From: an uncultured Bacteroidia bacterium
GTDB taxonomy: Bacteria > Bacteroidota > Bacteroidia > Bacteroidales > Prolixibacteraceae
Assembly: GCA_903918045.1 (NCBI GenBank)
Contig: CAIXCY010000082.1
Coordinates: forward strand, 63,730 to 127,729
DNA length: 64,000 bases
Direction of reading: 5' to 3'
Shown: positions 3,624 to 51,909 of the stretch, piece after piece
How the letters are laid out: every line of letters begins with the position of its first letter
Position numbering within the stretch: position 1 is the first letter of the stretch
Made by a program: the position numbers and the translations under genes
The notes under the pieces: generated by a model
What the model was told of the DNA's origin: nothing
What the model saw: only the letters and a program-made list of their open reading frames with translations
The model's database searches: none

Positions 3624-3998
3624 TTAGTTGATGGCCATTTCCTTTGGATCGGATCCATACCGGTTTTGGCCGTCAACACCATTTGAACAAAAAAGAATAA
3701 TCAGCCAGATTAGTCCGAGTACCGGCACTAAAACGATAAGCGAGAACCACCCGCTTTTTCCTACATCATGAAGCCTGCGGATCGAAACTGCGAATGTGGG
3801 AATAAGAATCGCTGTGATATAAACATAATTGAATAATCCATAGGGAAGACCTGCAGCAGTCAAACCTAATATATTGTCCGTTGCAATAGCCAGAAGAATG
3901 AAGACCAGATTATAAAAGAGAAACTTTCCCAACTCTTTTCTGCTTGCTCTTCCCCGAAGCACATCATACTTTTTAAGCGCTAATAAATACCATTTCAT
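3624..3998 (-). CDS. DUF805-family inner membrane protein
   Basis: 'RGRASRKE' N-terminal motif followed by 3-4 TM helices, as is typical of DUF805 (YhaH-like). Confidence 0.7.
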   Translation of the reverse strand: MKWYLLALKKYDVLRGRASRKELGKFLFYNLVFILLAIATDNILGLTAAGLPYGLFNYVYITAILIPTFAVSIRRLHDVGKSGWFSLIVLVPVLGLIWLIILFCSNGVDGQNRYGSDPKEMAIN

Positions 3999-4036
3999 CT
4001 TTAAATAATTATTCGTTAATCGATATAAATTTCAAT

Positions 4037-4528
4037 TCAGAAAGCTCTGATAGCACGCACAAAATAAGTGCCGCTCTTCTCATATTTAAACTGAACACCA
4101 TTACTAAAGAACTGAAGCCAGGCAGAATTTTCATCACATTCGCTAGAACTCCAGTAAAAGGAACTTTGAAAACCTCCAATTCGAGTTCTGCTAATGTAAA
4201 GCAGGTTTAATTCATCCTTGCTGGGTAAATACCAGTCAGAATACCCACCCCCCCGGTATGAACGCGCTATTCCCGCAGCATAGGCTGAAGATCGGCTACC
4301 TGTGCTGTTATAGATTTTATTCGTATTTGCAAGTCCGGAACCTAATTCAACTCCTGACGCACCTAAAATTTGTTTAAAATATTTAATCCAGACGATCCCA
4401 TTACTTTGATCGGCTTTGGCCGCAATTAACCCATGTAATCCGGTTTCGTCAAGATATGCAATTTTGCCCCCTCTGTATCTATCTCCAACAACTAATTTCC
4501 TGAATTTAAACAGGTTAAGAATATTCAT
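4037..4528 (-). CDS. DUF1566 (Lcl C-terminal-like) domain protein
   Basis: 'DWYLPSKDELNLLY', 'YWSSSE' and 'VRAIRAF' match the DUF1566 pattern. Confidence 0.65.
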   Translation of the reverse strand: MNILNLFKFRKLVVGDRYRGGKIAYLDETGLHGLIAAKADQSNGIVWIKYFKQILGASGVELGSGLANTNKIYNSTGSRSSAYAAGIARSYRGGGYSDWYLPSKDELNLLYISRTRIGGFQSSFYWSSSECDENSAWLQFFSNGVQFKYEKSGTYFVRAIRAF

Positions 4529-4571
4529 TCGTTATAAATTATCTCAGATTAACTATAATAACTAATTTTAT

Positions 4572-5147
4572 TTATATGGTCCTCAATTCCGGTGAAATGG
4601 ATCGGGATGATGGATTTTGGAAAATTGAATTTCCATTTATGACCTCAGTTGCCAGCTCATTTTGCCAAATTCCATTTACCGGTGGGTCATAAGTCATCAG
4701 TGAAAGGTCCTGATTATATAATGCTCCGCTTTGTCTGAATCCTAATTTATTCAGAATATGAATCATCGGCTGCTTTCGCGTCGTCGCATAAATTGGGAGG
4801 GACCTGATCTGATAAAAAATTGTTGTAAGCAACTGTTGACAATGCCCCTGATTTTCAAAATCAGGATGCGTAACAATATAACCAAGCTCCTTATGGTAAT
4901 TTTTCGATGATTCCAGATCCGCCAGCCGAAAAACTTTTTCTTTATACTCTTTGTATGGGTTCTTTAAAGTTGCTGTACAAATAACAGTCCCGTCGAGAAT
5001 CATATAACCGACAAAATCGGCATGACCGATTAAGATTCTGATCGCCTGACGATCCCCTTTTATTTGTCCGCCCCTGACAATTAGATCAATAATCTGGCTC
5101 AGATGCACCTCATCAATTTTGTTTGGCTTGCTTATTCTGATTTCCAT
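4572..5147 (-). CDS. GNAT-family N-acetyltransferase
   Basis: 'GYIVTHPDFENQGHCQQLLTTI' fits the GNAT motif A (Q/RxxGxG/A-like). I chose the internal ATG at 5147 (MEIRISK...) over the ORF-track start at 5213. Confidence 0.55.
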   Translation of the reverse strand: MEIRISKPNKIDEVHLSQIIDLIVRGGQIKGDRQAIRILIGHADFVGYMILDGTVICTATLKNPYKEYKEKVFRLADLESSKNYHKELGYIVTHPDFENQGHCQQLLTTIFYQIRSLPIYATTRKQPMIHILNKLGFRQSGALYNQDLSLMTYDPPVNGIWQNELATEVINGNSIFQNPSSRSISPELRTI

Positions 5148-5385: not shown

Positions 5386-6138
5386 ATGGAAAAAATAAGG
5401 TTGGTAATTTTTGATCTTTCCGGGACTACGGTTAGTGACGATAATGCAGTTGCGAAATGTCTGTTTGAGGGGGCGCAACATTTTGGTCTGCGGACTACAA
5501 TTGAGGATTTTGAAAAAACGATTGGAACCAATAAAATTCATTTGTATGAATTTATGCTTGCCAGAGACTTTGGAGAGCCTGTTCAAATTGAGAACCTTGA
5601 GCAATATCTTTTTCCACAGTACCATAATCAGGCGATTGAAATATTTAAGTATTACTCGGTTCTTATGATCGATCATTACAAGAGAGCAGTAAAAGCTATT
5701 CCCGGAACTGAAGAGACCTTTAACTGGTGCCATAACAATGACATTAAGGTAGTTACGGATACCGGATTTCACAAGGATGTAAATACCGCTATCATGGATG
5801 GACTGCAATGGAGAGAGCGGGGACTCGTAGATTTTGCGCTGGACGTGGAAGACACAGGCGAAATTGGAAGGCCTGCCCCGTTTATGATTTTCAAGGCAAT
5901 GGCTCTGACTGGAGTGCAAAGTGTCCATGAAGTAATTAAAATCGGTGATACACCCGCGGACCTTCTTTCAGGCTATAATGCTGGCTGTAAAGGAAATATC
6001 GGTGTATTGAGCGGTGCTAACCGCATTGAAACATTAAGAATTTATCCCCATACCCATATTATTAACAGTGTTGCTGACCTTCCTGAACTGATTGGCAAAA
6101 CGTTTAATGGTTCACCTAATAAATTAAGAATTGTATGA
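5386..6138 (+). CDS. Phosphonatase-like HAD hydrolase (PhnX paralogue)
   Basis: Motif I 'FDLSGTT' compares with PhnX 'FDWAGT'. It has a cap-domain 'GTNKIH' (Lys-His as in the PhnX Schiff-base region), 'GRPAPFMIFKA' (Arg rather than the usual HAD Lys) and 'GDTPADL'. Confidence 0.65.
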   Translation: MEKIRLVIFDLSGTTVSDDNAVAKCLFEGAQHFGLRTTIEDFEKTIGTNKIHLYEFMLARDFGEPVQIENLEQYLFPQYHNQAIEIFKYYSVLMIDHYKRAVKAIPGTEETFNWCHNNDIKVVTDTGFHKDVNTAIMDGLQWRERGLVDFALDVEDTGEIGRPAPFMIFKAMALTGVQSVHEVIKIGDTPADLLSGYNAGCKGNIGVLSGANRIETLRIYPHTHIINSVADLPELIGKTFNGSPNKLRIV

Positions 6139-7454
6139 CAGTACCAATGTCCACTTCCACTCCTAAAATAAAAGCACAGGAGATTCGTTTCGTTATTTTT
6201 GCCGCAATTGCGGCCTTTATAACCTACCTGAGCATGTATGCTTTTAGAAAACCCTTTTCTGCCGGCACATTCGATGGTCTTGCGATCTGGGGCATCGATT
6301 ATAAAATCCTCCTGATAATCTCCCAGTTAATCGGTTATACACTATCTAAATATTTGGGTATTAAAATAATATCTGAATTAAATCATGATAGTCGGACCAA
6401 AACACTAATTTTTCTAATGGGTACTGCATGGGTTATGCTCTTGCTCTTTGCAATTATTCCTTACCCCTACAATTTCCCGTTTATGTTTCTGAACGGTTTG
6501 CCGCTGGGGATGATCTGGGGAGTGGTATTCAGTTATATTGAAGGTCGTCGCTACACCGAATTACTTGGGGCAGTAATGGCATCAAGTTTTATACTATCCT
6601 CAGGAATTGTAAAGGGTGTAGGAAGATTTATGATTGACAATTTTCACGTCAGCGAGATGTGGATGCCTTTCCTTGTGGGCCTTGCATTTGTCCCTTTGCT
6701 TTTGCTTGGAATTTATATGCTAAGCCAGCTGCCTCCGCCGGATGAAACAGATATCGCACTTCGGACTGAACGTATTCCGATGAACAGTCATCAACGAATA
6801 GCCTTCTTCCTGAGATTTGCCCCGGGTTTTATTCTTTCTATCCTGATTTATATCGCGCTTACTATTTTTCGGGACTTGCGCGATAATTTTGCAGTAGAGT
6901 TCTGGAAGGGATTAGGATTCAGTAATACCCCTAAGATGCTGGTGATGACGGAAGTTCCTATTGCACTTTTTGTCCTTGTGATCATTTCACTGATGATTAT
7001 GATCCGAAATAACCGCCTTGCCTTTTATTCAACTTTTGCAATTATCTTTATAAGTGGCATTTTACTCCTGGGGTCGACACTTATGTTTAGCGCCGGAATT
7101 TTAGATCCTGTAAAATGGATGGTTATTGCCGGTTTTTCGATGTATCTCTCTTACCTGATTTACAACACCGTTTTTTTTGAACGATGGATTGCACACTTTC
7201 GGGTTAAGAGTAATATCGGATTTTTGATTTATGTTTCAGATGCAATCGGCTATCTTGGTAGCACAGCGGTGTTATTATTCAAAAATTTCAGTCATACAAA
7301 AATTAGTTGGGTCGAATTCCTAAAGATTAGCGCCCTCTCAACCGGTGTTATTATGGTCTTCCTCTCTTTACTCGCATTCCTTTACTTTAAGAATCTCGAG
7401 AAAAGAGCCATTTCCATAGAACCACTAATTGCTGAAAATGATGGACACAAGTAG
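6135..7454 (+). CDS. Polytopic (about 12 TM) membrane protein, putative phosphonate-related transporter
   Basis: 439 aa, hydrophobic throughout. The ATGA start/stop overlap with the upstream HAD gene suggests translational coupling. It sits inside the phosphonate cluster. Confidence 0.55.
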   Translation: MTVPMSTSTPKIKAQEIRFVIFAAIAAFITYLSMYAFRKPFSAGTFDGLAIWGIDYKILLIISQLIGYTLSKYLGIKIISELNHDSRTKTLIFLMGTAWVMLLLFAIIPYPYNFPFMFLNGLPLGMIWGVVFSYIEGRRYTELLGAVMASSFILSSGIVKGVGRFMIDNFHVSEMWMPFLVGLAFVPLLLLGIYMLSQLPPPDETDIALRTERIPMNSHQRIAFFLRFAPGFILSILIYIALTIFRDLRDNFAVEFWKGLGFSNTPKMLVMTEVPIALFVLVIISLMIMIRNNRLAFYSTFAIIFISGILLLGSTLMFSAGILDPVKWMVIAGFSMYLSYLIYNTVFFERWIAHFRVKSNIGFLIYVSDAIGYLGSTAVLLFKNFSHTKISWVEFLKISALSTGVIMVFLSLLAFLYFKNLEKRAISIEPLIAENDGHK

Positions 7455-43666: not shown

Positions 43667-44335
43667 ATGAAAAAATATCTCCAATATGGCATCCTCTTAT
43701 TCCTGTTTTTGTCATTGATATCGTTTAAGATACGCGACAATAATCGTAAGAGTTCAAAAAATGATCCGGAACCACAATATCTTTCTAATCTGGAACGGGA
43801 GGTTATTGAGGAACTAAATCTGGCCAGAAGTCACCCCAAAGTCTATGCTGATTTCCTCGCTTCGTATGCTGACCTCTTTATTGGAAGGGAGGTCCATGAG
43901 TCAGGAAAGACAATCCTGCTGACGAAAGAAGGTAAAGAGGCAGTAATTGAAGCAATAAAATTTCTGAGAAAACAGGCTCCGCTTGGAATATTAAAGGCAT
44001 CCATAGGGATGAGTAAGGGGGCCGGCGATATGGTCAGGATGCAGGAGACAACATCGCAAATCGGTCACAAAGGGAGAGATGGAAGCACATTTGCTGAACG
44101 CATCAGCCGTTACGGTACCTGGAGTGGATTATGTTCCGAAAATATTGATTACGGAAACAATGTAGCACGAAGAATTGTGATGGCGCTTATAATCGATGAT
44201 GGAGTTGGTAGCAGGGGTCATCGAAAAAGTATTTTCGAACCTGGTTTTAAAAGAGTCGGAGTCTCATTCGGAAGCCACAAAACATATAATTATATGTGCG
44301 TTATCGAATATGCAATTGGCTATACAGAGAAATAG
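43667..44335 (+). CDS. CAP (SCP/PR-1-like) domain protein, secreted
   Basis: Signal peptide. 'GHKG', 'ENIDYG' and 'SRGHRKSIF' are CAP-domain-like. Confidence 0.7.
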   Translation: MKKYLQYGILLFLFLSLISFKIRDNNRKSSKNDPEPQYLSNLEREVIEELNLARSHPKVYADFLASYADLFIGREVHESGKTILLTKEGKEAVIEAIKFLRKQAPLGILKASIGMSKGAGDMVRMQETTSQIGHKGRDGSTFAERISRYGTWSGLCSENIDYGNNVARRIVMALIIDDGVGSRGHRKSIFEPGFKRVGVSFGSHKTYNYMCVIEYAIGYTEK

Positions 44336-44368
44336 ACCGTTGTTCGCTGTGTGGATCACTAAATAGTT

Positions 44369-44416
44369 GGACATAAAAAAAGTTTATTGAATGCTCAATA
44401 AACTTTTTTTATGTCC
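44369..44416. terminator. Bidirectional hairpin (22-bp perfect stem, 4-nt loop)
   Basis: ggacataaaaaaagtttattga-atgc-tcaataaactttttttatgtcc, between convergent genes. Confidence 0.7.
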
Positions 44417-44469
44417 TGAAGTAAAAATCCCGTTGCATTATGAATTACACCGGTAGTATGGTGACAATA

Positions 44470-45516
44470 CTATTCAGTTTCGTTGTAGATTGTGACTACG
44501 GTATTTGAGTTACCAAGGTCGATACCAACATAAGTAATATTTTCCTTCATCTCAAGGCTATTTGTTGCAGGAACCATTGATACCGAGTTTAAGCAATATC
44601 CCTCGCTGGCGCAAAGATAAGGTTCCGGGTAAACGATTACTTCAAGAATATCCTGGAACTCCTCTGTGAATAATGTAACTAACTCCGAATACATGGCACC
44701 TCCGCCAACGAGATAGATTTTATTTGTTCTTGAGAAGTCTTCATCTGAAAATTTCTTACGCATTGCAGGTGAAACCACTTCGTTATAATAGCTGGTTAAA
44801 GCGCGTTTGCGCATCTCCAAAACATCCACTTTACGACGATTGATCAGGAAGAAACCTCGCTGAAAGGCCCGTTCGATTTGCTGGCCGGTGAGCAGGTTGA
44901 GGTAATAGTTTTTTTCAATCTCATTTTCAAGGATATTAACAGCATATTGGATCCCCTTTTCGCTATGGGCTGTCCGCTGAATAATACCTGAAGGGGTGGA
45001 AAGTGCTAATTCGAAGGTCCCAAATCCAAGACTTCCAATAAAGAAATTTTGTGTTTCGGCCATCTGACCCTGACGAATTGCCTTTATGCAACCGTCAATT
45101 TCTGTCATTACATCAAACGCAGAAACATTGACACTAATATTCTCAACACCAGTTCCACCAAATGTTCTGGTATCAAAGCTAACCTGATGTTTACCTAAAT
45201 AGAAATCTCTGGCCCCTTTTTTATAAATAGCGTGAGTGATAAACGGAAAACCTGTAGTTATAACCATCTTATTATCTGTTCCCTGTGCAGCAATGATTAA
45301 TGCAGTAAGCGCCATTAACTGATAATCCAGATCCTGTGCAGAACTATTCAGAAATTTATGAGGGGCATTGCCTTCAGTCAGTGCCATATTACCAATCAGG
45401 TAATTGCGCTGGTTAAAATTATTGATTTTCATCCCTTCAATAAAGTTGGCTGCTACTTTAGCAAAATCCACAGTGGTTTCCTCATAAACACTAGGGAATA
45501 CATAAGATCGTTTCAT
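44470..45516 (-). CDS. Actin-fold (ParM/Alp-like) ATPase with phosphate-1 hairpin at the C terminus (apparent circular permutation)
   Basis: Motif order in the ORF: 'YVFPSVY' (beta3-like) at the N terminus, 'FFIGSLGFGTFELA' (phosphate-2-like), 'KIYLVGGGAMYSEL' (adenosine-like), then C-terminal 'MKENITYVGIDLGNSNTVVTIYNETE' (phosphate-1-like). Confidence 0.6.
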   Translation of the reverse strand: MKRSYVFPSVYEETTVDFAKVAANFIEGMKINNFNQRNYLIGNMALTEGNAPHKFLNSSAQDLDYQLMALTALIIAAQGTDNKMVITTGFPFITHAIYKKGARDFYLGKHQVSFDTRTFGGTGVENISVNVSAFDVMTEIDGCIKAIRQGQMAETQNFFIGSLGFGTFELALSTPSGIIQRTAHSEKGIQYAVNILENEIEKNYYLNLLTGQQIERAFQRGFFLINRRKVDVLEMRKRALTSYYNEVVSPAMRKKFSDEDFSRTNKIYLVGGGAMYSELVTLFTEEFQDILEVIVYPEPYLCASEGYCLNSVSMVPATNSLEMKENITYVGIDLGNSNTVVTIYNETE

Positions 45517-45588
45517 AAATGTTTTTTTATAGTTTAAAGGTATTTTATATTGTTATTTTCAACGTATATGATTCATATAAATTAAATT

Positions 45589-46956
45589 TTAATTGAATAA
45601 TGATGAATAATCATCACTTGGCAGCTTACGAATAGCATCATTAAGAAAAAAATCGCCGTTTTCGATCGCCTTGGCCTTATTGGCAGGCTCATTTTCACTG
45701 TTTTTCTTTATTCCAAATTTTTCCTGTTCACTCTTTTTATCAACAGATTTTGCGTCCTGATATCTCACAGGGCTCAATAAATTTCTAAGTTCCTCGAAGC
45801 CCGATATGCTGTAATTTTTGCCCTTTCGTGCAGTGGGTGAAATCAGCGTAGCATCAGAACTGTATGGTTTTTTCTTTCCTTTTCTTATCTTGGAGGAATC
45901 CTCCCTGATCGGCTCCCCCAGGCAGTTGGCAATAGAAACAGGGGAAGGAAGCGGGAAAAGAACCAATTCGCCATTTTCAGCCATATTATCTTCAAAATCA
46001 AAGTCGAGTAACTGAACATAGTCATTTTCAGACTTCAACGTCAGTTCTGAAATTTGAGTTGCAACTAATTCATCCTGTGGATTTTCAACTAATTCATCCG
46101 ATACGGTTAAGAGTGTGAATATTTCATCCTCTTCAATCCCTGGCTGCTCCAGAAACAGCATTTCCTCTGATTCGGACGGAAGGTCGGAAGGGATAGTATC
46201 CACAGAATTCACTGATGAAATTGATTCACCAGCAATAAGCGAAAACCTGTTTTCTATTGTTTCATCTGTCAATTGAACTGCATCACCTTCTAGCGATAAA
46301 TTATCAGAAAGGTCAACTATTTCGGACAATGAATCTGAAGGAGTTAATAATTTTGAAATTTTGTCATTCCCAGAAGGGTCTTCCTGGTGATTTATGAAAT
46401 TCTCGTTACCGGTATTCTGCCCAATTAATTTCGATAGCATATCTCCCGAATTACCGGGCATCTGCTCCCACAACGTTTTATTCAGTGAAAAGGAATCCAA
46501 TTGCTCTTCCTTCACAAAATCGATTGGATCCTCAAAGGTAATCTGAGCATGATTATAGGCTGGTATTTGTCGGCGGTTGGGTTCAATTTTAATCATCTCC
46601 TCTGCGAGGCAAATTTGAGCTTCATCGATTGCTTCCAATTTTTCATAGGTAATAACCCTGGCAGTAATTGTAGCACCATCCTTTACTTCAAAGACCTTTG
46701 TATAAAGATTTCCAAAAACGGATGCATGCTCATGAAGGATTGTAATACCGGAAACGATTATATTACCCTCAATTCTTCCGAATACAACAAGATCTTTAGC
46801 CCGAAGAAACCCTTTAACAAATCCTTCTGCACCAATAATTACATTTTTATCAGATTCCACCTTACCAAATACTTCACCATCGATGCGCACATCGGTGGTA
46901 AATATAAGTTCCCCATTTATTTTTGAGGAGGAATTAATTAATGTAGGTATCTTCAT
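45589..46956 (-). CDS. Bactofilin-domain protein with a long acidic C-terminal extension
   Basis: Residues ~10-105 ('INGELIFTTDVRIDGEVFGKVESDKNVIIGAEGFVKGFLRAKDLVVFGRIEGNI..') fit the bactofilin (DUF583) beta-helix repeats. The remaining ~340 aa are rich in D, E and S. Confidence 0.75.
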   Translation of the reverse strand: MKIPTLINSSSKINGELIFTTDVRIDGEVFGKVESDKNVIIGAEGFVKGFLRAKDLVVFGRIEGNIIVSGITILHEHASVFGNLYTKVFEVKDGATITARVITYEKLEAIDEAQICLAEEMIKIEPNRRQIPAYNHAQITFEDPIDFVKEEQLDSFSLNKTLWEQMPGNSGDMLSKLIGQNTGNENFINHQEDPSGNDKISKLLTPSDSLSEIVDLSDNLSLEGDAVQLTDETIENRFSLIAGESISSVNSVDTIPSDLPSESEEMLFLEQPGIEEDEIFTLLTVSDELVENPQDELVATQISELTLKSENDYVQLLDFDFEDNMAENGELVLFPLPSPVSIANCLGEPIREDSSKIRKGKKKPYSSDATLISPTARKGKNYSISGFEELRNLLSPVRYQDAKSVDKKSEQEKFGIKKNSENEPANKAKAIENGDFFLNDAIRKLPSDDYSSLFN

Positions 46957-47116
46957 ACTAAACTAACATGCTATGATTGAATGAGTTTTAAACAAAACTA
47001 CAATTCGGAATAATTCAAATTTAAATCTTTACAGCCAACAAATATAACAAGTTATTTTTACACACACATAAAATTTTGCAATAATTATTTATTCGTCGTA
47101 AATAATTATTCGTAAC

Positions 47117-48445
47117 TTAAATAACTTTTCCTCTCCAATTACCCCATTTAAGGTACCAATAAGATAATAATCCAGTTAAAATGCTATAAATAAATTCACA
47201 AGTCCAAACATACTCTATTTTCATGTGAAGTTTTACAGCGATTATCCAGGCAAACAAAAGGTATACTGATATTGTAACCATTTCAATAACAAGTGCATAA
47301 TTGGTATTAGCTGTTCCCAGAACCCCATTAAAAAGAATGCTCATAATTCCCAGAATGAAGAGGGCTGCCAGAATAATATAATAGGATGCAACCGAAGCTT
47401 CGGCGAGTGCCTGATTATTCGTAAAGAGCGAAATTACAACTCTTGGAGAAATCACTGCCAAACCAACTGTAAATGTCATTGCGAACATACTAAATCTGAC
47501 GACCTTTTTGATAATCGGGATTACAAGTTGTGGCTTCCCTTCGCCCAGAGCTTTGCTTACCAGTGTACTGACTACCGAGCATAGTGCCCAACCAGGAATC
47601 ATCAGCAGAAGGTAAATACTTCGAATGATATTGGATACGGCAAGCGACCTTTCACCCATTTTTTCGATGAACATAAAAAATAAGAACCAACTGCCTAGCG
47701 ATAGAACATATTGCAGCATTACAAACCCGGATATGCCCAGTGTACTTTTGATGATCCCAAAATCTGGCTTAACCCACTTTAAAAGTGCATATTGTTTAAA
47801 TTTTGAATTTGTTCGGGTGACAAAAATCAAGAATAAAAGTGCACAAAGTTCGGCAATAACAGATGCAATTGCTGCCCCCTGAATCCCTAATTGTGGCAAC
47901 CCCCAATGACCAAAAATAAGGAGATAGGCAAGCACGACATTTATGCCGGCCATAATTGCCGAACTGATACTCAGATACCTTGTAAAAGCAATACCGGTAT
48001 AAAACGAACGAAAAATCAATCCTGCTGAAGCAAATATAAGTCCTAAGATCCTGTAAGTAAGAAACTTCGTGCTTGCTGTAAAAACTGCCTCCGAGGCCAT
48101 AAATGGATGCAGCATATTGGGGCCGTAGAAAAATACGATGGAAGTAATAACCAGTGAGGTTATCCCCAAAAAGTAAAAACTGTTATCCACTATCCTTCCA
48201 ATTCCAAGATAGTTTTTCTCCCCGTTTCTCCGGGAGATCAGAATCTGTACACCGGTTGAAAATCCGAAACCAACCATGTAAAAGGTCGTATACAAAAGAC
48301 CTCCAATAGCAGATGCGCCCAGTTCCACTTCACCAACACGTCCTAAGAAAGCGGTATCCGTAATATTAACGACACTCTGAGCAGCCAGACTCAACATAAT
48401 TGGCCAGGCTATATCCCAGATTACCCGGGAGGTGGGGATCGACAT
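47117..48445 (-). CDS. MATE-family efflux transporter
   Basis: 442 aa, 12 TM helices. 'IAWPIMLSLAAQSVVNITDTAFLGRVGEVELGA' is a typical MATE N terminus. Confidence 0.85.
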   Translation of the reverse strand: MSIPTSRVIWDIAWPIMLSLAAQSVVNITDTAFLGRVGEVELGASAIGGLLYTTFYMVGFGFSTGVQILISRRNGEKNYLGIGRIVDNSFYFLGITSLVITSIVFFYGPNMLHPFMASEAVFTASTKFLTYRILGLIFASAGLIFRSFYTGIAFTRYLSISSAIMAGINVVLAYLLIFGHWGLPQLGIQGAAIASVIAELCALLFLIFVTRTNSKFKQYALLKWVKPDFGIIKSTLGISGFVMLQYVLSLGSWFLFFMFIEKMGERSLAVSNIIRSIYLLLMIPGWALCSVVSTLVSKALGEGKPQLVIPIIKKVVRFSMFAMTFTVGLAVISPRVVISLFTNNQALAEASVASYYIILAALFILGIMSILFNGVLGTANTNYALVIEMVTISVYLLFAWIIAVKLHMKIEYVWTCEFIYSILTGLLSYWYLKWGNWRGKVI

Positions 48446-50813: not shown

Positions 50814-51909
50814 TTAATCCTCTCCTTCCGAAAATTCCATTAAAAATGCCTTTATAAAACCATCAATGTCACCATCCATAACTCCCTGTACATTTGATGA
50901 TTCAAATCCGGTCCTCACATCTTTGACCAATTTATAGGGTTGCATGGTATAAGAGCGAATCTGAGACCCCCACTCTATTTTTTTCTTGCCTGCCTCAATT
51001 TTGGTTACCGCTTCATGACGCCTCTGAAGTTCAAGAGCATATAGCTGAGATTTAAGCAGCCTTATTGCATTCTCTTTATTCTGCAATTGTGAACGTGACT
51101 CTGTATTTTCAATGATAATACCTGAAGGTGCATGTTTGAGCCTCACACCGGTCTCCACCTTATTTACATTTTGCCCCCCTGCCCCTCCGGAACGGAACGT
51201 ATCCCACGAAATATCACCCGGATTTACATCAATGATGATTGTATCGTCAACGAGTGGGGCAACGAAAACCGAAGTAAATGAGGTTTGCCTTTTCCCCTGG
51301 GCATTAAACGGCGAGATACGAACCAAACGATGTACACCATTTTCGCTTTTGAGATACCCGTAGGCAAATTCACCATCAATCTCAATGGTGACACTTTTTA
51401 CACCAACATCTTCACCAGGGACAAAACTGGCCTCGCGGACTTTGTATTTATGCTTCTCAGCCCATCGCAGGTACATTCGCATCAGCATATCGGCCCAGTC
51501 ATTCGATTCCGTACCGCCGGCGCCGGCATTGATTTTCAAAACTGCTCCAAGCCGATCCTCTTCGCGGCGAAGCATATTTTTGGTTTCAAGATCTTCAATC
51601 AAACCCCTCGCCTCAAGAAATTGCTCTTCAAGTTCATCTTCGGTTATTTCACCGGCTTCACTATAATCAAACATGATCTGCAAATCCTCTATGGCCTGAT
51701 CAACAGCTTTAAATCCGTCAGTCCATTGTTTGACTGAACGGATCACAAACATTTGCTTCTCAGCTTCTTTGGGATTATCCCAGAATTTGGGATCCTGAGT
51801 TTTTAATTCTTCTTCCTCTAAACGGATTAATTTATTATCGACGTCAAAGAAACCTCCTCAGCGCATCCCGGCGCTCAACAAGCTCTTTTAGCTGTTCCTT
51901 TAGGATCAT
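50814..51909 (-). CDS. prfB: Peptide chain release factor 2, requiring a programmed +1 frameshift
   Basis: ORF0 is 51909..51847 (MILKEQLKELVERRDALRRFL) and ends at an in-frame TGA (51846..51844). The +1 frame continues DVDNKLIRLEEEELKTQDPKFWDNP... into the listed ORF, which carries 'SPF' and 'GGQ' motifs. Confidence 0.9.
51843..51862 (-). other. prfB +1 frameshift site
   Basis: The minus strand reads GAGGAGGTTTCTTTGAC: an SD-like AGGAGG followed by the slippery CTT TGA C, the same architecture as E. coli prfB. Confidence 0.85.

Follow-up and report, generated by a model that had tools for sequence, protein, structure and literature searches.

Whether the chain of a bacterial actin can begin and end at another place of its fold is the question raised by a gene in the 64,000-nucleotide stretch of DNA analyzed here (hereafter, the window), which is part of contig CAIXCY010000082.1 of an uncultured Prolixibacteraceae bacterium (assembly GCA_903918045.1). 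To our knowledge, the chain topology is the same in all bacterial actins described so far. A previous reading of this DNA, made from the sequence only, had proposed, without giving the strand, that an open reading frame (ORF) at 44470-45516, found here on the minus strand, encodes an actin-like protein (Alp) whose phosphate-1 hairpin, N-terminal in ParM, MreB and other Alps, has been moved to the C terminus, in what would be a circular permutation. The proposal has held up in rotation tests, in around 200 homologues and in the predicted fold, and it is very probable that the product of the gene is a ParM/Alp-type actin-fold ATPase with a genuine circular permutation that selection has maintained.

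The translation of the ORF holds every string quoted in that first reading, and motif positions, profile matches and the structural model agree on the arrangement then described, with a beta3-like start, phosphate-2-like and adenosine-like motifs in the normal order and a phosphate-1 hairpin at the end. Between the preceding stop codon and Met1 there is no other start codon, which makes an upstream extension impossible, and Met1 is invariant in a set of 89 aligned homologues (53-91% identity to the query), to which the conservation data given below for individual residues refer. The N terminus reads MKRSYVFPSVYEE and the chain opens at strand beta3 (MKRSYVFPSV). All three nucleotide-binding motifs are present and conserved family-wide, namely GIDLGNSNT (residues 331-339), SLGFGTFE (162-169) and VGGGA (270-274), but their order is not the canonical one with phosphate 1 at the N terminus, since this element occupies residues 327-345 of 348. 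The hairpin from I327 to N345 is VGIDLGNSNTVV, and the whole C-terminal tail from residue 323 to 348 reads MKENITYVGIDLGNSNTVVTIYNETE. Five residues of the transplanted motif (G331, D333, G335, N336 and T339) are invariant among the aligned homologues, and the same is true of E139, G164, G166, G271 and G272. The only part of this description that did not stand concerns the Met preceding the hairpin, which had been described as the hairpin's own: it is residue 323 rather than approximately 322, and is replaced by I, L, T or N in orthologues, so that it can be considered a chance feature of the window orthologue and not a relic start codon.

Profile searches gave independent indications of the altered order. 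The Pfam model ALP_N matched the native protein with 35.9 bits (cutoff 26.3) over residues 3-133, corresponding to profile columns 17-139 of 148; as the match begins at column 17, the phosphate-1 columns have no counterpart at the N terminus. MreB-like_C was also found above cutoff (31.0 bits versus 27.8, residues 178-275), along with PHROG 691, annotated as "partition protein" (E 2e-17, profile columns 26-310 of 329). The protein was then rotated in silico, placing residues 323-348 before residues 2-322, and scanned again against Pfam. The ALP_N match now covered columns 1-139, starting from G331, and rose to 46.7 bits, 10.8 more than with the native order, in agreement with the sequence-only reading that joining the C-terminal end to the N-terminal one would recreate a normal actin-fold N terminus. 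For a broader comparison, a reference hidden Markov model (HMM) was built from 24 canonical Alps, the nearest non-permuted relatives in the exhaustive profile search described below, all with the N-terminal hairpin motif within residues 5-40. When 156 permuted proteins were aligned to this model, rotation moved the median start of the alignment from column 21 to column 1 and increased the score by a mean of 12.2 bits, the gain being positive in 155 of the 156, whereas the mean gain with a shuffled hairpin was 1.5 bits. In a joint alignment, canonical proteins open with '..LGIDLGYGFVKA..DYIFPSVVG', the permuted ones open with '..FPSV..' and close with '..VGIDxGNxNTV..', and residues 1-14 of the window protein align with the post-hairpin segment '..DYIFPSVVG'. 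The N-terminal hairpin is confined to the canonical proteins and the C-terminal hairpin to the permuted ones. Thus, as corresponds to a circular permutant, the canonical N-terminal segment aligns at the C terminus of the query and the remainder is colinear.

The tail might be thought an unrelated look-alike of phosphate 1 carried by an N-terminally truncated Alp, given that the motif is short and that, in a phmmer comparison with PDB, the stretch aligning residues 329-346 with residues 2-19 of the ASKHA activase 7yyl_E was not significant by itself (-3.0 bits). This has hardly any probability left, being largely refuted by the five residues invariant in 89 sequences, by the specificity of the rotation gain, which the shuffled control lacks, and by the confident prediction of a beta-hairpin without which the IA sheet would be short of two central strands, as well as by the presence of the motif in distant relatives on mobile elements and in every homologous ORF inspected.

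The same order is found well beyond the window. A word-indexed search returned 195 homologues, with a coverage of 96-100% of the query in all but one of the 120 listed; most are about 345-360 residues long and 53-95% identical to the query, and where a name is given it is hypothetical, "ParM/StbA family protein" or "plasmid segregation protein ParM". Scanning one genome per species yielded 79 loci, with identities down to 38%, nearly all of them labelled as Bacteroidota (one is on a contig filed under a Peptostreptococcaceae metagenome-assembled genome, MAG). Carriers include Prolixibacteraceae, Paludibacter, Draconibacterium, Sunxiuqinia, Penaeicola, a Prevotella MAG and rumen Bacteroidales, and among cultured bacteria Maribellus maritimus, Mucilaginibacter spp., Sphingobacterium spp. 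and Dysgonomonas mossii DSM 22836. With Prolixibacteraceae MAGs from lake and groundwater, the identity of the window protein is 94-96%. The pattern G[ILVM]D[ILVMF]G[NSTAY].[NSTG] was present in all 86 homologous ORFs (from 85 loci), at positions 322-349 except in a truncated 184-residue ORF (L048), where it is at 168. All 86 begin at the beta3-like FPSV/FSSL segment or with a short leader ahead of it, and the N-terminal hairpin is absent from every one of them. The possibility that the window alone has a pseudogene, or an artefact of assembly or rearrangement, has nothing in its favor and is in practice refuted, with a chance close to nil, as the permuted order is kept in around 200 homologues from independent assemblies, the cultured isolates just mentioned among them, and the reading frame is intact with a conserved Met1. 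This rules out misassembly and makes the read mapping suggested earlier unnecessary; what was proposed as the property of one gene is that of a large family.

The structure of the protein was predicted as a monomer with AlphaFold2, using the 89-sequence alignment, and the result was a confident actin fold (mean predicted local distance difference test, pLDDT, 89.9; predicted template modeling score, pTM, 0.89). The chain of the model runs through beta3 (E2-8, followed by a strand at E10-14), the IB elements, a IA strand (83-90), a long strand (124-138), the interdomain helix (139-149), the IIA strands with phosphate 2 (158-181), the IIB helices, strand 266-270, the adenosine loop and a last helix (299-314). 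From there a 12-residue linker (315-326), whose sequence and length differ among orthologues and whose confidence is low (pLDDT below 50 at 318-323), leads to the C-terminal hairpin, formed by strands E327-334 and E338-345 with a pLDDT of 93 over residues 331-340. Foldseek searches against PDB gave matches with probability 1.00, E values from 1e-14 to 1e-11 and template modeling scores of 0.6-0.7. The top matches (Ta0583, pCBH ParM, Dh-cParM1, Alp7A, CorM, BtParM, pSK41 ParM and Alp12, then MreB, R1 ParM and MamK) are all filament-forming or actin-homologue Alps, and the best viral structural matches are phage proteins of actin fold. With the family profile, no PDB sequence was matched at E <= 0.01. 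Mutual information with average product correction (221 unique family sequences, with an effective number of only 66), calculated with the aim of placing the hairpin next to beta3 and beta4, gave top pairs that mostly reflected phylogeny and the variable linker.

In canonical actin folds the IA sheet has the strand order 3-2-1-4-5, and the N and C termini sit together in this subdomain. In the permuted protein the chain starts at beta3 and passes through IB, IA, IIA, IIB and IIA in the normal sequence, the last helix brings it back to IA, and the variable linker leads into the hairpin, which would insert in cis into the IA sheet next to beta3. The phosphates of Mg-ATP would then be bound by D333 and the G335-N336-S337 loop, with the participation of E139 and of the phosphate-2 (S162-T167) and adenosine (G271-G273) loops. 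Judging by its position, E139 likely corresponds to the catalytic Glu/Gln found in ParM, MreB and actin, its catalytic role being taken from the family. We infer with high confidence that the hairpin restores the phosphate-1 site in cis, in view of the confidence of the model, the 3-residue linker between the last helix and beta1 in a distant permuted relative (P0208; pLDDT 90.7, pTM 0.88, with the same structural neighbors), which favors cis closure, and a IA sheet that would otherwise be left without two central strands. Structure prediction, proposed earlier as a check, has provided the actin fold with its C-terminal hairpin, and model confidence and linker length point to this hairpin as the element completing the ATP site.

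The hairpin could also complete the active site of a neighboring subunit by three-dimensional domain swapping, which would couple polymerization to assembly of the ATP site and leave the topology equally permuted. The window linker is flexible and filament formers hold their subunits close, something a monomer prediction does not consider, but this arrangement seems improbable when the whole chain fits in one confident model, relatives with linkers of about three residues favor closure in cis and the termini of the canonical fold are already together in IA. Insertion in cis thus remains the preferred arrangement, and the elements described so far are listed in Table 1 with their positions in the window and with those of the neighboring features.

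Table 1. Position of the permuted actin-like gene, its structural elements and adjacent features in the window (residue numbers refer to the Alp, unless the bactofilin is indicated).
Feature	Position (nt)	Strand	Details
Circularly permuted actin-like ATPase gene	44470..45516	minus	Intact ORF, 348 aa plus stop; Pfam, AlphaFold2, Foldseek
New N terminus, residues 1-14	45475..45516	minus	MKRSYVFPSVYEET; counterpart of strand beta3, subdomain IA, of canonical Alps
Interdomain helix, residues 139-149	45070..45102	minus	Starts with E139; model helix H139-149
Phosphate-2 motif, residues 158-169	45010..45045	minus	FFIGSLGFGTFE; G164, G166 invariant, S162 at least 90% conserved (89 sequences)
Adenosine motif, residues 268-276	44689..44715	minus	YLVGGGAMY; Y268, G271, G272 invariant (89 sequences)
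Linker, residues 315-326	44539..44574	minus	Joins former C-terminal helix (H299-314) to former N-terminal hairpin
Transplanted phosphate-1 hairpin, residues 327-348	44473..44538	minus	beta1 I327-L334, loop G335-S337, beta2 N338-N345
Bactofilin gene	45589..46956	minus	455 aa; PF04519 73.4 bits (cutoff 27.9), residues 5-101 (nt 46654-46944), 97/98 profile positions
Conserved bactofilin C-terminal peptide, bactofilin residues 436-455	45592..45651	minus	FFLNDAIRKLPSDDYSSLFN; kept in related bactofilins despite diverging tail
Bactofilin-Alp spacer	45517..45588	minus	72 nt; terminator-like site not found
Inverted repeat	44369..44416		Perfect 22-nt repeat, 4-nt loop, A/T-run flanks; 100% complementary, past Alp stop codon

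Distant relatives offered information on the possible origin of the permutation. In an exhaustive profile search covering 1.84 billion representatives, 15 full-length permuted representatives appeared at E <= 1e-73, followed by a gap; between 1e-9 and 1e-3, canonical Alps, offset by around 20 residues because of their N-terminal hairpin, were mixed with divergent permuted proteins (P0198, P0208, P0229, P0239, P0241, P0243 and P0234), one cluster being from Silvanigrellaceae. These divergent proteins lie on plasmid- or phage-like contigs, among genes resembling those of mobile elements: trfA, a resolvase and a BrnT/CopG toxin-antitoxin pair in locus L086, two GpA terminases in L091, PolB and a 5'-3' exonuclease in L093, and a viral contig from IMG/VR with a permuted Alp and a small ORF in L094. 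An ORF of 89-128 residues is located directly 3' of the Alp gene in every mobile-element-type locus examined, and, of the five distant relatives inspected for repeats, three (L086, L088 and L091) have arrays with a 10-11-bp period upstream of this gene; L088 has 11 registers, and L091 six plus four. This layout resembles that of type II parC-parM-parR systems, the small ORFs being called ParR-like for their position and size, since they gave no significant match to Pfam or PHROG families and share a weak common pattern only. The mobile-element relatives could thus represent a second, permuted kind of parMRC segregation system. Searches with tblastn gave no match for the window Alp in PLSDB nor for P0198 in INPHARED. 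In L086, many tandem iterons of about 22 bp (TTAGGGCGTTATCACCCACC..) are found at 4400-4700 beside trfA, presumably as the plasmid oriV, and are distinct from the 11-bp repeats nearer the Alp gene. A full-length DnaK/HSP70 gene is convergent just downstream of the Alp gene and the small ORF in L089 (4135-5949), L090 (4891-6684) and L094 (4688-6535).

A bootstrapped neighbor-joining tree with the rotated permuted proteins and the canonical ones separated both groups with 77% support, which fell to 58% when the hairpin columns were left out; support for the Bacteroidota clade was 97-99%. The permuted lineage also has derived characters in its phosphate-1 loop, which is DxGN(x)(N/T)T versus DxG(Y/F)GxxK in canonical proteins, and in phosphate 2, where Ser replaces Asp: canonical relatives have IDIGF(K/R)T.D, and nearly all the permuted proteins, including the majority of the distant ones, S(L/I/V)G(F/Y)GT.E, with Ser162 occupying the place of the canonical Asp in the window protein (the distant permuted protein P0234 has Q instead of this Ser). 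On the basis of the tree split and these shared characters a single origin of the permutation is likely, though not proven. As to the route, the sequence-only reading had favored a duplication followed by truncation, which could not be demonstrated. With a loose motif, 161 of the 297 proteins collected gave a match at the C terminus only, 35 at the N terminus only, 13 at neither end and two at both, these last two being judged a chance match and a fragment. As no convincing double-hairpin intermediate was found among the 297, the duplication-then-truncation route is kept here as a hypothesis.

The Bacteroidota branch of the family, the window gene included, is chromosomal. In the window the locus is surrounded by housekeeping genes (methylmalonyl-CoA mutase, acetyl-CoA synthetase, a MATE transporter and the release factor RF2), and orthologues sit on contigs of 3-7.6 Mb. 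None of the elements of a type II ParMRC locus was recognized in the window: no minus-strand ORF, and thus no parR-sized adaptor gene, lies downstream of the Alp gene, the region 44300-47200 contains short two-copy repeats only and no parC-like array, and the location is not that of a plasmid or phage. What precedes the Alp gene is a bactofilin gene, whose product carries, after its domain, a tail of approximately 350 residues, poorly conserved in sequence and length and presumed to be disordered, which ends in a conserved peptide. Given the spacer between the two genes they could be co-transcribed. Past the Alp gene, the inverted repeat separates it from a convergent CAP-domain gene (43667..44335, plus strand) and probably acts as a bidirectional terminator ending the operon; a consensus terminator scan missed it because of its AT-rich stem. 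A PADLOC scan for defense systems gave no match for the Alp nor for the bactofilin.

This gene pair is the part of the locus that recurs in other genomes. A bactofilin gene on the same strand adjoins 60 of the 71 Alp genes that could be evaluated (38 upstream, 16 downstream and 6 on both sides), and all other neighbors differ across genome loci. The bactofilin tails end in conserved peptides that are specific for each clade. In the clade of the window the end is FL.xAI..LP.DDYSSLF(N/K); other Prolixibacteraceae and Paludibacter lineages have SKISQIxSL, SFLFxNL or FFFKIFQNQ, and in Mucilaginibacter, Sphingobacterium and relatives, including a Massilibacteroides MAG, the protein starts with MLSIFKKE, resembling a membrane-targeting sequence, and ends with ..(R/S/G)WW. 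In this last group (L050-L085) the bactofilin gene is downstream of the Alp gene and the terminal ..(R/S/G)WW-COOH is strikingly conserved; at several of these loci, mainly in Sphingobacterium, there is a second, short bactofilin (113-135 residues) upstream. The conserved terminal peptide of the window bactofilin is a candidate docking motif. Similar ends were noticed in the window bactofilin (..LPSDDYSSLFN), in the Alp homologue P0127, of 535 residues and with a long K/E-rich tail (..PDDDYEPDFS), and in the small ORF of L088 (..EIDSFFSN), and a single terminal docking motif may be common to the three. Two permuted Alp paralogues of an uncultured Tangfeifania MAG (L025), at 3950-5050 and 5828-6874, are separated by around 780 nt, with a bactofilin beside the first one only. 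In the gut/rumen clade to which L053 belongs (rumen Bacteroidales, Alp gene at 4001-5050), the permuted Alps have no bactofilin neighbor and carry a conserved C-terminal extension (..QYEDVNIESGNLRFK); the gene is flanked by large ORFs, the upstream one possibly a MiaB-like enzyme and the downstream one uncharacterized.

With respect to activity, the window protein most likely binds ATP and polymerizes like its structural neighbors, a conclusion reached by analogy with them and held with moderate confidence. A permuted actin fold that does not form cytomotive filaments, as would be the case of a non-polymerizing ATPase, an ASKHA member resembling a chaperone or an enzyme, or a scaffold with weak catalysis, was also contemplated. 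The change from Asp to Ser in phosphate 2 across the family would fit such a protein, as would the weak similarity to EutJ and to the activase at the adenosine motif and the HSP70 gene found next to some mobile-element relatives. We regard this as unlikely, because the best structural neighbors are all polymerizing Alps, the PHROG 691 match is to a partition protein, the mobile-element relatives come with a centromere-like array and an adaptor-sized ORF, and the partner in Bacteroidota is itself polymer-forming. Moreover, the EutJ and MreB scores are far under their cutoffs: the EutJ model aligns with the adenosine motif only, and the same motif is all that is covered by Pfam MreB_Mbl (14.2 bits, cutoff 27) and NCBIfam MreB (13.1 bits, cutoff 293).

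Our best guess on function, within a polymerizing Alp, is that a domesticated partition-type actin and a bactofilin scaffold make up a two-polymer cytoskeletal module, where the peptide ending the bactofilin tail would play a ParR-like role, capturing or nucleating the Alp filament. We infer, with low-to-moderate confidence, that the actin descends from a mobile-element partition system and that in Bacteroidota the bactofilin substitutes for ParR/parC as anchor or nucleator. The more specific picture of a composite cytoskeleton, with a permuted actin derived from a mobile-element parMRC, a bactofilin polymer that nucleates, caps or anchors it and a tail peptide that replaces the C-terminal ParM-binding peptide of ParR, is tentative and rather doubtful as it stands. 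It would draw on the acidic-aromatic peptides ending the bactofilin tails (..DDYSSLFN, ..SFFFKIFQNQ, ..RWW) and one mobile-element adaptor (..EIDSFFSN). The permutation may itself matter for function, since it brings the free C terminus of the chain to the beta2 end of IA, a point from which long tails extend in some members.

Several points weigh against this overall interpretation. The placement of the hairpin in the ATP site derives from pLDDT and pTM values, short linkers and the IA-sheet argument rather than from superposed coordinates, and the Foldseek alignments, being sequential, are blind to an overlay of the hairpin on canonical beta1-beta2. The tree support for a single origin is only moderate. 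The connection between bactofilin and Alp is deduced from synteny, and 11 of the 71 Alp genes evaluated, including a whole rumen/gut Bacteroidales clade, have no adjacent bactofilin. Finally, Ser in the place of the phosphate-2 Asp suggests altered hydrolysis kinetics, so that hydrolysis may be slow or modified in some other way.

Comparison with known systems places the protein among the ParM/Alp actins. It has the same two-lobed fold as Ta0583 (2fsj/2fsk), pCBH ParM (6izr), Dh-cParM1 (8x1i), Alp7A (5ec0) and pSK41 ParM (3js6), the Pfam domains of the group (ALP_N, PF17989, and MreB-like_C, PF21522) above cutoff and the three nucleotide motifs, and its permuted relatives on mobile elements share with these systems the centromere-like repeats and the small downstream ORF. 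It differs from them in the C-terminal position of the hairpin, in the phosphate-1 loop (DxGNxNT instead of DxG(Y/F)GxxK) and in the Ser of phosphate 2, and its gene, unlike ParM/Alp partition loci, is chromosomal and lacks parR and parC. The best-known natural topological rearrangement in the bacterial actin family is that of FtsA, with subdomain 1C in place of IB. FtsA moves a whole subdomain and keeps the phosphate-1 hairpin at its N terminus, whereas the window protein keeps the four subdomains and shifts only the chain termini, as in a true circular permutation. A precedent in terms of function could be the CorMR system of Anabaena, a chromosomal ParMR system repurposed for the control of cell shape (10.1101/2025.06.27.661541; PDB 9rmi). 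CorM, which is among the best structural matches of the window protein, is also a ParM-type actin that went from mobile-element partition to a chromosomal cytoskeletal role, but as described in its paper it has the canonical chain order and a ParR-type partner, in contrast to the permuted order and the putative bactofilin partner of the window protein.

Bactofilins act as scaffolds that do not depend on nucleotides, are usually bound to the membrane and recruit client proteins, as in Myxococcus xanthus, where BacP interacts with PadC through a motif in its long C-terminal tail, and in Caulobacter crescentus, where BacA and PbpC constitute another bactofilin-client pair (PMC12448750). The gene product encoded upstream of the window Alp is a bona fide bactofilin and resembles these scaffolds in its long, poorly conserved tail and conserved terminal peptide; the link to its putative client, unlike those of BacP-PadC and BacA-PbpC, is suggested by gene order. 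Full-text literature searches, which leave most subscription-journal papers uncovered so that a prior description is possible, returned no bactofilin partnering an actin-like protein, no actin-bactofilin operon and no permuted bacterial actin, in line with the earlier statement that none was known; neither the permutant nor the operon was found in papers on chromosomal ParM, CorMR, bactofilins and CIRPIN. The fold and probable activity are thus those of the ParM/Alp type, and the chain topology appears new for the family, as does the partner.

A natural, ancient and widespread permutant would imply that cytomotive actins can have their chain ends at more than one position. It would also offer a natural experiment on the order of folding and on the contribution of the phosphate-1 hairpin to nucleotide-driven polymer dynamics. 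In practical terms, the permuted order explains the clipped profile annotation of these proteins, with ALP_N matching from column 17 onwards; several orthologues are missing from the Pfam hit list for one of the two domains. Since the pairing with bactofilin is conserved in cultured Bacteroidota (Dysgonomonas mossii, Sphingobacterium, Mucilaginibacter and Maribellus), a possible actin-bactofilin partnership would be directly testable.

One additional observation concerns the RF2 gene (prfB), located on the minus strand at 50814..51752 within the region 50814-51900. The N-terminal part is missing from this ORF, and ...RRFL*, read in another frame, comes before the sequence CTTTGAC at 51843-51849, an arrangement that fits the classical +1 programmed frameshift of prfB.

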